In this document: positions 29,129-33,713 of the stretch, one piece after another
Numbering within the stretch: the stretch's first letter is position 1
How the letters are laid out: each line of letters opens with the position of its first letter
Origin: Candidatus Freyarchaeum deiterrae
GTDB taxonomy: Archaea; Asgardarchaeota; Jordiarchaeia; Jordiarchaeales; Jordiarchaeaceae
Reading direction: 5' to 3'
NCBI GenBank assembly: GCA_037305845.1
Contig: CP147778.1
Span: 1,024,001 to 1,088,000, forward strand
DNA length: 64,000 bases
The notes under the pieces: generated by a model
What the model was told of the DNA's origin: nothing
The model's input: only the letters and a program-made list of their open reading frames with translations
The model's database searches: none
Made by a program: the position numbers and the translations under genes

Positions 29129-29659
29129 CTATATTTTTTCTGATAATTTCTTTTTCTTCGGCCTCCAATACTTCCACTTATTATTCCAAGATTTCCACCC
29201 AGTTTTAACATATTTCTCTCTACCTTCAAGATCCCCCATAACCCACCTTATAAGCGCGTAAAATCTATCCCTGCCGCTCTCGACAGTCAAAGTTTCCCTA
29301 GGAATCCCCAATGAGGCATAATAATCCAAAAGAGAGTTCTCAATCAGATCTTGCAATTTTCCTTCGATACGAGTAGGTTTCACTTTATATCCTTCACCCA
29401 TTAGAGTCAAACTGATCTCACTCAGAACTGAACCAGTACAAATCTCGATCTCTTCATCCTTAGTAACATTTAGCTCCTCCAAAGCCTCCCTTGCTAATCT
29501 TAAGGCCTCCTTAAGATAAGTTTTCCTAGCAAAATTAGGAGGACGAAAATGAGAAACATCAATCATTTTCACAACATATTCACCAGTTTCTTCACGTAGA
29601 AACCCCAATAAACAACCACCAACAAGGTCGCCCCATCCAGCATCATCTATTCTAAGCAA
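29129..29659 (-). CDS. RNase H-fold (RNase HII-like) hypothetical protein
   Basis: IDDAGWGDLVGG resembles the RNase HII GIDEAGRG strand; TTG start after GAGGGA. Confidence 0.65.
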   Translation of the reverse strand: MLRIDDAGWGDLVGGCLLGFLREETGEYVVKMIDVSHFRPPNFARKTYLKEALRLAREALEELNVTKDEEIEICTGSVLSEISLTLMGEGYKVKPTRIEGKLQDLIENSLLDYYASLGIPRETLTVESGRDRFYALIRWVMGDLEGREKYVKTGWKSWNNKWKYWRPKKKKLSEKI

Positions 29660-29689
29660 CGGGTATCCCTCAAGATATTATCAAAGGCT

Positions 29690-29771
29690 GAGTACCAATT
29701 CCAGTTCTCCGCTAGAAAGCTTGGGCGGTCTGCCAAGCGGCGTCCCAAGTCTGAGAAACTAAAACTCACTC
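29690..29771 (-). other. Long structured RNA element upstream of the RNase H-fold gene
   Basis: Nested pairings GAGT/ACTC, AGTTTTAGTT/AACTGGAATT (with G-U), CTC/GAG, CTTGGG/CCCAAG. Confidence 0.55.
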
Positions 29772-30074
29772 GTATTATGACCATAAAATCACACCTAACA
29801 CTTAAAGTAAGTCAGATAAAATATAAATCCAACCCATAGAATTACCTTTAAAATAAATTACAAATAATAAAACATTTCTGTAAAAATGGTAGTTGCTCTG
29901 GCTTCCTTTGTCTTCTTAAACTGATTTCACGTAGAGAATAGAACACAAATCTGAAAAGAATAATTTTTTATTGAGTCTTAATTTTTCAGTGAAAAGTATA
30001 AAACAAAAAATACTTTCATAATGGAAAACACGAAAGAAAGGCAAAATAAATAGTTAAAAAACAAAAAATTAAAG

Positions 30075-30563
30075 TTAAGCCATTAGCAATGTACGTACTA
30101 GTTTACTGCGTAGAATGCCCTTTTTACTTAATTGGGACATATCTCTCATGTAATTAATTTTGATGTACTCATCGCCACCAGATAAGTTTGCGTATTTCTT
30201 ATACTCTTGAAAAAATTCGGTAAAATCGTTCGTTCTTGTCAGTTTAGATTCAACCTCGGGGGGAATTCTTATCAGAGCATCGGGATCTGAACATCTTCCA
30301 CTTGTTATTTTGAAAGTTTGCACACCACTTTTACACATGTAAAACAAGTTCCCTCCTGCATTAAACTGAAGTGTGATATCTCCTAAATTTTTATTCGCTT
30401 CGATAACCTCTGGATATTCCAACCTTGCCACAAACCAGTCCAACAATGTATCATCGCCATGATAAGAATTATCAGTCTCTAAATTTGTGGGAATGTTGTT
30501 CTCTGTGTCAGTATTTTCTTCGGCATTTCTGGATTTGCCTTTAAATATTTTTAACCTACTCAC
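30075..30563 (-). CDS. Hypothetical protein, possibly a divergent SCP2-like fold (likely start GTG 30563)
   Basis: GTGAGGT RBS; ITLQFNAGGNLFY...ITSGRCSDPDALIRI. Confidence 0.55.
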   Translation of the reverse strand: MSRLKIFKGKSRNAEENTDTENNIPTNLETDNSYHGDDTLLDWFVARLEYPEVIEANKNLGDITLQFNAGGNLFYMCKSGVQTFKITSGRCSDPDALIRIPPEVESKLTRTNDFTEFFQEYKKYANLSGGDEYIKINYMRDMSQLSKKGILRSKLVRTLLMA

Positions 30564-30864: not shown

Positions 30865-32035
30865 ATGGCAAAAATAACAGTCTCCTTAATAAAAGCAGAT
30901 ATAGGTTCCTTAGCTGGCCACACAACCGTACATCCAGACTGCCTAGAATCAGCCAAAAACTCGTTAAAAAAAGGAAAGGAAGACGGAACAATAATTGATT
31001 ATCACGTAACCCACGCAGGCGATGACCTAGAGCTAATAATGACACACAGAAGGGGTGAAAACAACGAAAAAGTACACAAACTAGCCTGGGACACCTTTAC
31101 CAAAGCAACTGAAATTTCGAGGAAACTCAAGTTATACGCAGCAGGTCAAGATCTACTCAAAGACACATTCAGCGGAAACGTCAAAGGAATGGGACCAGGA
31201 GTCGCAGAAATTGAATTCGAGGAAAGAGCAAGCGACCCTCTAATAGCATTCATGGCAGACAAAACCGAGCCCGGAGCCTTCAACTATCCGATATTCAAAA
31301 TCTTCGCAGATCCCTTCAACACAGCAGGACTAATAATAGATCCCTCTCTACACCAAGGATTCACATTTGACGTTCATGATGTAATGGAAAACAAAGGAGT
31401 ACCAATACAATGCCCGGAAGAGATGTACGATCTTTTAGCATTAATAGGAACAACAGGTAGATACGTAATCAGAAAAGTGTGGAGAAAAGACAAATTACCA
31501 TGCGCGGCAATCTCCACAACACGGCTCAGCTTAATAGCGGGAAAATATGTAGGAAAAGACGACCCTGTTGCCCTCATACGTGCTCAAAACGGGCTACCAG
31601 CCACCGGAGAAATTTTAGAACCATTCGCATTCCCTCACCTGGTAGCAGGCTGGATGAGAGGCAGTCACACGGGACCTCTAATGCCTGTCAGCGTTAAGAA
31701 CGCTGTTTGTACTAGGTTCGATGGACCGCCAAGAATTGTTGCCTTGGGCTTCAACATTTCCGACGGCTACTTAGTTGGACCAATAGACCTATTCGACGAC
31801 CCAGCATTCGATCTAACAAGACAGCAAGCGAATGAAGTAGCAGACTTCATGCGCAGACACGGACCTTTCATGCCACACAGACTAGGACCCGAGGAGATGG
31901 AATACACATGCGCGAGTTTCTTTATACTTGTATATCGAATCGCGTTCGAATACAATTGAGGTTTGCCTCACGCAGTAGAACACCCTTCCCGGAGTTCTGA
32001 AAAAGTTGGATAATCGGTTCATGAAGGAAGATTAA
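30865..32035 (+). CDS. fbp: Fructose-1,6-bisphosphate aldolase/phosphatase (class V FBPase), join(30865..31907,31981..32035), 365 aa if spliced
   Basis: KADIGS..GH, GDD, YAAGQDLL, DKTEPGAFN, YVGKDDP, GWMRGSH, EMEY; expected C-terminus TLPGVLKKLDNRF found 73 nt downstream in another frame. Confidence 0.95.
31908..31980 (+). other. Candidate bulge-helix-bulge (tRNA splicing endonuclease-type) intron in fbp mRNA
   Basis: ATAC-ACA-TGCG...CGCA-GTAG-AAC; cleavage AC/A and AA/C gives TAC ACC ACC CTT CCC (YTTLP); insert is strongly self-complementary. Confidence 0.75.
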
Positions 32036-32267: not shown

Positions 32268-32299
32268 TTTTTTATCGCCTTCCTTTTTTTTCCTCAATT

Positions 32300-32388
32300 G
32301 TATGTAAGTTATGTGGTTTTTTCAATTATTAATTTACATACTTTTACAATGTTTACATACACAGTCTATACGTACACTAGTTACATTA
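32300..32388. promoter_or_regulatory. TTACATAC repeats in the divergent promoter region
   Basis: GTATGTAA 32300-07 (inverted), TTACATAC 32334-41 and 32353-60, TTACATTA 32381-88. Confidence 0.4.
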
Positions 32389-32438
32389 ATAAGGCTTTCG
32401 AAACATACATTAAATTAAGAAACTTGGGGAAAGATCCT

Positions 32439-33713
32439 ATGAGTTATGACATACTCATTAAGAAGGACAAATACAAACAGTTCCATCTAAAAGGAAACCC
32501 TTTCGTAAAAACTTCTGCGGAAGCTATGACCGAAGAGGAGATACTTGAAACTCTAGTGTTTACAGCAGAAGACGAATCGATAGCCACAAACATAGACATT
32601 GTTCTCAGCGGAGGCGGAGCGACCATCAGCTTGGTGGGTGACTACGGGACTGGGAAAAGCGTTAGAGCTGTAGCCATAGCTGAAACTTTTAAGAAACATG
32701 GCGGATTGGTTTTCTTATGCAAGGTTCCCAGTGGAGACCCTGTTAGATACGCGAACGCACTTTTTGAATCAGTATGTCCCGAAGCACTCTCTCTAAAACT
32801 CCCCGTTGAAGATAAAGATTTTATTTTTGAAATTCGGGAATACTATAAAAATTTGAATATAAAAAATTTGGAGTTTGATTCTCATAAGGCGGGGAGAGAT
32901 TTAGCAAGCGTTTTTTCTATTTTGAGTAAAAACGATTATTCTACCTGTTTTATCATAGACGAGTTTGAAGAGTTAATTTCTGCGGGAAATGAGAAAGAAA
33001 TTAGAGAAGCCTTTACTCTTACTAGGGAATATCTTTCAAGGGTTCACGGTTTAAAGAAACACATCACGGTTATTTGTAGCAGCCCAAAATCTTGGCAGAT
33101 GGTTAAAGATATTCATCCAGCTGTTATCTCAAGGATTATGGCTGAGATAGAATTTGAAGAACTTGATAATAATTCGGCTGTTGAACTGGTTAGCAAGAGA
33201 CTGAAAATATATAGAGAGGATAACCCTCCGAATCCCATTTTCCCTTTTACAAAGGAGGTTATTGAGAAAGCTAATGAGGTAGCCTATCATAATCCTCGCT
33301 ACTTACTAGTTATTCTACGAAGCACACTTGAGGCAGCCTTAAAAAGGGAGAGTAGTCAGAGTGTAGAGCTTCAAGATTTAGATACAGGCATTCGTCTGGC
33401 CAGAGGAAAGCTCAGCACGAGTATTCTTAAGAGAATGAAGGAAGAACTGACTACTAGGGAACTCGACATTTTCTTGAAAATCTGCGAAAAGTTTGGCGGC
33501 GGACCAGTTTTTGCCAGTCAGTTAGCCGAATCTTTGGATATTGACCAAGGGAATATTTCAAGGTACCTCAACAAGTTGTCTAAAATAGGGTATTTAGATC
33601 AAAATAGAGAGGGGCAGAAGGTCTTGTTCGAAGCAAAAGAACTCTATAAAGTAGTTTTCGCTAGGAAGAAAACCACCAAGATTGAGGTTAAACCTGATAA
33701 AGGTGAAGAATAA
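32439..33713 (+). CDS. P-loop AAA+ ATPase with C-terminal winged HTH (ExeA/Orc1-Cdc6-like architecture)
   Basis: LKGNPF, GDYGTGKS, IIDEFEE, AVISRI, PIFPF, HNPR, C-terminal QLAESLDIDQGNISRYLNKL. Confidence 0.85.
   Translation: MSYDILIKKDKYKQFHLKGNPFVKTSAEAMTEEEILETLVFTAEDESIATNIDIVLSGGGATISLVGDYGTGKSVRAVAIAETFKKHGGLVFLCKVPSGDPVRYANALFESVCPEALSLKLPVEDKDFIFEIREYYKNLNIKNLEFDSHKAGRDLASVFSILSKNDYSTCFIIDEFEELISAGNEKEIREAFTLTREYLSRVHGLKKHITVICSSPKSWQMVKDIHPAVISRIMAEIEFEELDNNSAVELVSKRLKIYREDNPPNPIFPFTKEVIEKANEVAYHNPRYLLVILRSTLEAALKRESSQSVELQDLDTGIRLARGKLSTSILKRMKEELTTRELDIFLKICEKFGGGPVFASQLAESLDIDQGNISRYLNKLSKIGYLDQNREGQKVLFEAKELYKVVFARKKTTKIEVKPDKGEE

Follow-up and report, generated by a model that had tools for sequence, protein, structure and literature searches.

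The locus studied here raises the question of how a gene of central carbon metabolism can encode its conserved C-terminus, when this segment lies behind an in-frame stop codon and in another reading frame. The gene (fbp) is situated in the window, i.e., the whole stretch of 64,000 nucleotides from Candidatus Freyarchaeum deiterrae that was analysed. Its open reading frame (30865-31959) ends with EEMEYT-CASFFILVYRIAFEYN* at a TGA stop codon and encodes 364 aa, which track the family up to Tyr347-Thr348 and end with 16 unrelated residues. The family tail, TLPGVLKKLDNRFMKED*, resides in another frame at 31982-32035. This arrangement had been described in an earlier note on the same DNA and was confirmed from the sequence. 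We consider it probable (roughly 85%) that the insert is a tRNA-type (bulge-helix-bulge, BHB) mRNA intron, which is spliced by EndA and RtcB and conserved across one Asgard genus. The proposal of a BHB intron in an Asgard fbp gene, already made in the note, is supported by genus-wide conservation, the occurrence of inserts in three phases, compensatory pairs, a selected exon 2 and the splicing repertoire of the host, all of them read from sequence.

The fbp product was assigned to the class V FBP aldolases/phosphatases by its family profile (PF01950, E 1.5e-178), by its fold, which resembles 3R1M and 1UMG (TM 0.9), and by the conserved EY motif. Class V fbp is present in one copy in the host genome, in which neither a class I nor a class II FBPase was found. 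One gene of the IMPase family could provide some backup FBPase activity. Tyr347 aligns with the tyrosine of ST0318 whose mutant had no phosphatase activity (PMC8740755). The predicted spliced form and the unspliced form both keep Tyr347 and differ just in the segment after it. A literature search on the role of the C-terminal helix of FBP aldolase/phosphatase yielded no paper.

To define the junctions, all excisions of 70-79 nt were tried. Just two of them, 31908-31980 and 31909-31981, restored YTTLP, and the BHB cut rule (cleavage after the second bulge base) is satisfied by the former, not by the latter. The excision of 31908-31980 leading to YTTLP and a protein of 365 aa, as proposed earlier, was thereby reproduced. 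The central helix ATAC/GTAG is paired at three of four positions, the inner helix h′ at seven of eight, and the bulges are ACA (5′) and AAC (3′), which are the values given in the note. The 3/4 central helix recurs in all 13 distinct inserts that were compared, and in each of them cleavage after the second base of both 3-nt bulges restores YTTLP. Contiguous pairs of h′ number four in the window and four to eight across the inserts. We regarded a central helix of 4 bp as canonical and one of 3/4 as relaxed, with at least two pairs in the intron-side helix h′. On the exon side, no pair (0) is formed directly beside the 3′ bulge, which excludes the full canonical hBHBh′ class, though not the relaxed class. 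The outer exon helix had been called weak; this holds for the position beside the bulge, but a few bases beyond the BHB the exons form a helix of 13 pairs (31883-31896 with 31986-31999). Judged by these pairings, the fbp junction is a relaxed BHB with HBh′ layout and not a canonical one, and every testable feature of a relaxed BHB intron, as opposed to the full hBHBh′ class, is present in the insert.

When the insert was shuffled 20,000 times with its dinucleotides preserved, 0.2% of the shuffles had H>=3 and h′>=4 at the fbp site. Under loose rules, the BHB motif by itself is common across the genome. Therefore, geometry alone proves little, and the weight lies on the exact restoration of the motif and on conservation. 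An extra hairpin, TGAGG/CCTCA, had also been pointed out; its formation competes with that of the inner helix, and it lacks conservation, being weak or absent in the copies L113 and L128. In agreement with the note, no target-site duplication is conserved, but the 4-nt direct repeat ACAC is present (31904-07, 31980-83). We did not interpret it as a target-site duplication, because most relatives have ATAC there and a 76-nt excision would remove the conserved Thr. A search of Rfam with the insert gave no match.

Table. Features of the fbp locus (positions in the window) and of further inserts in the host genome (positions on C1)
Feature	Position	Strand	Basis or remark
fbp exon 1, Met1 to Tyr347 and first two bases of Thr348	30865..31907	+	PF01950, fold, single copy
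Outer exon-exon helix, 5′ strand	31883..31896	+	96% of cells paired; codons 341-343 synonymously invariant
BHB 5′ strand: central helix ATAC 31902-05, bulge ACA 31906-08, predicted cut after 31907	31902..31908	+	GAA TAC synonymously invariant in all intron-bearing copies
Predicted BHB intron, 73 nt, phase 3n+1, in-frame TGA	31908..31980	+	Excision, alignment of relatives, covariance model
Intron helix h′, 5′ arm	31909..31916	+	Pairs 31910-31973 and 31913-31970 compensatory
AU-rich variable inner hairpin of the intron	31917..31961	+	Pair 31930-31947 compensatory
TGA closing the unspliced 364-aa frame	31957..31959	+	ORF reading
h′ 3′ arm 31967-74, central helix GTAG 31975-78, bulge AAC 31979-81, predicted cut after 31980	31967..31981	+	GTAGAA invariant (13/13)
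fbp exon 2, third base of Thr348, TLPGVLKKLDNRFMKED and stop	31981..32035	+	pN/pS 0.24
Outer exon-exon helix, 3′ strand	31986..31999	+	Duplex energy comparison
rtcB insert	C1 ~1452800
porA insert	C1 ~1589350
kae1 insert	C1 ~2203700
pcm insert	C1 ~2244150

An insert at the identical site was detected in five of five congeneric genomes and in further assemblies. The 13 distinct inserts have lengths of 70, 73, 81 or 89 nt and thus cover all three phases, and the removal of each restores YTTLPGVLKK. Five genomes of the sister family and about 250 other homologous proteins are devoid of the insert, none of them having an insertion at the fbp site, and the gene tree requires one gain (support 83/93). 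We propose that a tRNA-type intron was acquired once, in the ancestor of the Freyarchaeia genus. According to BLAST and a covariance model, the insert is single-copy per genome; the covariance model revealed no insert outside the genus among the 15 genomes searched. An assembly artefact, considered in the earlier note, can be dismissed, as independent Logan assemblies contain the identical insert. The comparison with sister genomes proposed there supports the intron reading: presence at the same site genus-wide, absence in the sister family and compensatory pairs.

In the public protein records of the genus (e.g., MEM2133648.1, MHA1207877.1, MEM3587059.1), whose cluster members are named Freyarchaeota or Jordarchaeaceae, all listed sequences end in the unspliced tail (362-364 aa). 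The spliced protein was found neither among the 15 listed of 27 cluster members nor among fragments and short homologues, a search that is uninformative because the proteins are mostly called from DNA assemblies. The 89-nt insert of the L127/L128 lineage has expanded via tandem duplications of short units (TACT; CTAA repeats). If the TACT duplication were absent, its tail would again read ...FEYN, with the N-stop three codons later.

The surroundings of fbp vary within the genus. GAPDH is located directly upstream of fbp in L111, L112 and L114 and is absent from the host locus (window 29659-30075), the host GAPDH being encoded at C1:398078-399028. A gene of the class II FBP aldolase family (C1:384524-385426) exists in the host and was not found in 12 relatives searched. 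In most congeners, fbp is followed by an AAA+ ATPase with a C-terminal winged helix (window 32298-33713), which is preceded by a conserved divergent minus-strand ORF of 49 aa (L111, L112, L114-L116) and is absent from this position in L118-L121.

The substitutions within and around the insert were studied in detail. Its ends are invariant in the 13 distinct inserts, including the sequence GTAGAA, while the middle is variable. The second pair of h′ (31910-31973) is G-C, but A-U in L127/L128, the fifth pair (31913-31970) is A-U or U-A depending on the lineage, and the inner-hairpin pair 31930-31947 is G-C or A-U in all seven 73-nt copies. This covariation comprises few events in related sequences; its score was reached by 10 of 500 shuffles, a level possible from relatedness alone. 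Exon 2 exhibits a pN/pS of 0.24, its first eight codons show synonymous changes and no amino-acid change, and its stop codon is in place in all copies. These patterns indicate that exon 2 is translated and under purifying selection. On the other side of the insert, invariance is seen in five of the six degenerate codons that most closely precede the site, compared to 15% gene-wide, and it is these frozen codons that form the 13-pair outer helix. The outer duplex had a mean energy of -19.8 kcal/mol in the intron-bearing copies, which belong to one clade, and of -9.7 in 85 intronless homologues. For the window's own duplex, the comparison with synonymous recoding was not significant (P 0.07).

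The host encodes two EndA paralogues (C1 near 1921033 and 1733162) and RtcB. A complete 3.58-Mb Freyarchaeia genome, the same as studied here, has been published, its overall topology being validated by long reads, and introns were reported for 92-95% of tRNA genes (PMC11291895). Using the coordinates of its supplement, which matched the genome exactly, we selected the tRNA introns of the host that have H>=3 and h′>=2, which number 34. They include the relaxed form, since the central helix is 3/4 in nine of the 34, three of which have a G.A at the same terminal position of this helix as fbp. More than half (18/34) end with AA, as the fbp insert does. With 70-89 nt in the genus, the latter is longer than any of the 60 tRNA introns of the host that were examined (10-67 nt).

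The fbp intron had been treated as a single case. This view was not upheld, because frameshifting inserts with BHB geometry also reside in porA (28 nt), kae1 (28 nt), pcm (32 nt) and rtcB (29 nt) of the same genome. All four end with AA, and their removal by the BHB rule restores YPITP (porA), GPGLGPC (kae1), ISAPHM (pcm) and LPDAHQG (rtcB), which we take to be motifs of the respective families. When frameshifting inserts flanked by a BHB were sought across the whole genome by intrinsic features, the scan was without power, the true and seven decoy geometries giving the same counts. The published metatranscriptome comprises 0 transcripts for fbp in Freya.

Another insert was noticed in the vicinity of fbp. 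In the region 29650-29784 of the window (minus strand), a neighbouring gene of 176 aa carries a unique structured insert of 122 nt a few codons after its ATG (29784), where the congeners compared show an uninterrupted M-V/G-I-Q-I-D-D. By sequence comparison this insert is species-specific. No frame-restoring excision with convincing BHB geometry was obtained for it (best H 4, no h′), and no further copies were found in the host genome. The TTG at 29659 is a possible restart codon for this gene.

From the sequence we infer the following steps of folding, cleavage and ligation of the fbp mRNA. The outer exon-exon helix and the intron helix would fold the pre-mRNA so that both junctions lie together in a relaxed BHB, which the two-subunit splicing endonuclease (EndA) would cleave after 31907 and after 31980. 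RtcB would then ligate the exons, joining GGAATACAC to CACCCTTCCC; in congeners from hot springs or Guaymas the junction base is T. The spliced message should give rise to a normal 365-aa enzyme with the conserved C-terminal segment after the active-site Tyr347, whose junction tryptic peptide would contain EEMEYTTLPGVLK. From unspliced messages a by-product of 364 aa with a hydrophobic tail would be made, which is probably non-functional or degraded.

The earlier note went further and suggested a possible switch between two C-termini. On this reading, which adds to the intron and does not compete with it, regulated splicing would leave some message unspliced to encode a functional second isoform, in which a 17-aa tail instead of the canonical C-terminal helix alters the enzyme's balance of phosphatase and aldolase activity, its location or its stability. 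We judge this unlikely, as the signs of selection on the tail are mixed. The unspliced frame is open for 16-17 codons and has an N-stop end in 12 of the 13 inserts, and it is kept in L031, where eight extra bases follow the stop. Tyr at position 10 and Phe/Leu at position 14 of the tail occupy the sites of Leu and Phe in the canonical tail. Invariant columns of the tail amount to 8/15 at the second codon position and to 3 and 2 at the others, and column shuffles produced less conservative substitutions than those observed (BLOSUM P 0.0009; no-stop P 0.05). However, synonymous changes in the tail were not enriched (P 0.54) and replacements not depleted (P 0.65), and much of the coding-like pattern is mimicked by the intron hairpin, which pairs codon positions 2-2 and 1-3. 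In the nested L127/L128 lineage, known from two assemblies, the tail is frameshifted, but the intron ends and exon 2 are intact. The AlphaFold model of the unspliced form placed a tail helix at 350-356, though with a pLDDT of 60-70 and with canonical tails in the alignment during prediction; it has low confidence at 337-348 and cannot judge the tail. The host possesses its own class II aldolase. In the sister family, which lacks the intron, the ADP-dependent kinase is of the same family, and no gene for a class II aldolase was found. Thus, no metabolic need tracks the intron. A need for an aldolase-only isoform was discarded for want of support from the distribution of aldolase and kinase genes. 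The combined proposal, that Freyarchaeia splice many mRNAs via the tRNA machinery and that regulated retention of the fbp intron sets the ratio of the canonical enzyme to a selected isoform with hydrophobic tail, appears slightly less credible still.

Far less probable is translational bypassing as in T4 gene 60, by which ribosomes would take off at the Asn codon before TGA, slide over 25 nt, land on the matching Asn codon at 31979-81 and resume with Thr-Leu-Pro, so that a protein with a 16-aa insertion would result without any splicing. A matched AAY take-off/landing pair with the stop right after take-off is indeed present in 12 of the 13 inserts, and the window's copy has a small hairpin at the stop. 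L113 and L128 have not retained this hairpin (TGAGG/CCTCA), though, and in L127/L128 the in-frame stop follows ATT, which lacks a matching landing codon, with exon 2 intact. The AA of the landing site is at the same time the commonest 3′ end of host BHB introns. Furthermore, none of the intronless homologues carries an insertion in this loop, and bypassing accounts neither for the exon-exon helix nor for the pairing of the Tyr codon with an invariant GTAG.

We gave marginally less credence even to the assumption that nothing is rejoined, the 364-aa protein being the sole product and the old tail a relic, or fbp being truncated by a small mobile element. All listed database annotations represent the unspliced form of 362-364 aa, and Tyr347 and Thr348 are kept in it. 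But a relic does not fit with an exon 2 under purifying selection and a stop in place in all copies, nor does a mobile element fit with one copy per genome by BLAST and the covariance model, none in the other families searched, and neither terminal inverted repeats nor a conserved target duplication. Selenocysteine or a simple +1 frameshift at the TGA was rejected, as a TAG stands in the frame of exon 2 shortly before the junction and the inserts cover three phases.

If the interpretation of the fbp insert as a BHB intron is true, endonuclease-and-ligase splicing of mRNA would be an ordinary process in a lineage that stands near the ancestor of eukaryotes, affecting fbp and at least four other genes with inserts, and the spread of introns in these archaea would extend beyond tRNAs. 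The annotation error would be systematic, because all database entries found for the genus would have the wrong C-terminus, to which DNA-based gene-calling is blind. The fbp element would also offer a concrete mRNA substrate for EndA and RtcB of an Asgard archaeon. In a literature search that covered few subscription papers, none on Asgard mRNA introns or on an fbp intron was found.

In the literature consulted, archaeal mRNA splicing has been documented for just two genes, cbf5 and HVO_1309 (reviews including PMC10485636). The cbf5 pre-mRNA intron of Desulfurococcales and Sulfolobales (Watanabe 2002; Yoshinari 2006; Yokobori 2009, PMC2738675) is short and ORF-less like that predicted in fbp. 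Both are found next to a catalytic residue within conserved coding sequence, frequently have a relaxed BHB, go back to a single gain in a clade and occur in hosts with a hetero-oligomeric EndA. The fbp intron differs in that it resides in an Asgard genus and in a central-carbon gene, is longer (70-89 nt versus 16-44 nt in cbf5; PMC2738675), contains a conserved inner hairpin and is located near the 3′ end, so that the unspliced message encodes 95% of the protein including both catalytic regions; its splicing is predicted from sequence. The BHB-flanked mRNA intron in the 5′ UTR of HVO_1309 of Haloferax volcanii is cut by EndA and leaves as a circle (PMC7714728; PMC10485636). It has 46 nt and is untranslated, whereas the fbp intron interrupts and frameshifts a coding sequence. 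Similar to that of fbp are the tRNA introns of non-canonical type in Freyarchaeia and Atabeyarchaeia (PMC11291895; bioRxiv 10.64898/2026.10.13.758758), which stem from the same genome and share its junction repertoire, namely a 3/4 central helix, a terminal purine-purine mismatch and an AA end. When these two papers were searched by terms, no passages on mRNA introns were found. Unlike those introns, that of fbp interrupts an mRNA and is longer than all 60 examined.

A more distant analogy is provided by HAC1/XBP1, where the loss of a short frameshifting intron, with rejoining of the tRNA-ligase type, exchanges one C-terminus for another. There, IRE1 cuts at stem-loops instead of EndA at a BHB, and regulation is established, whereas for fbp it is hypothetical. 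If true, regulated retention of the fbp intron would constitute a prokaryotic, Asgard counterpart of HAC1/XBP1-style C-terminal swapping. Compared with these known systems, the predicted fbp intron stands out through the lineage of its host, the gene it interrupts, its length and the other inserts that accompany it in the genome.
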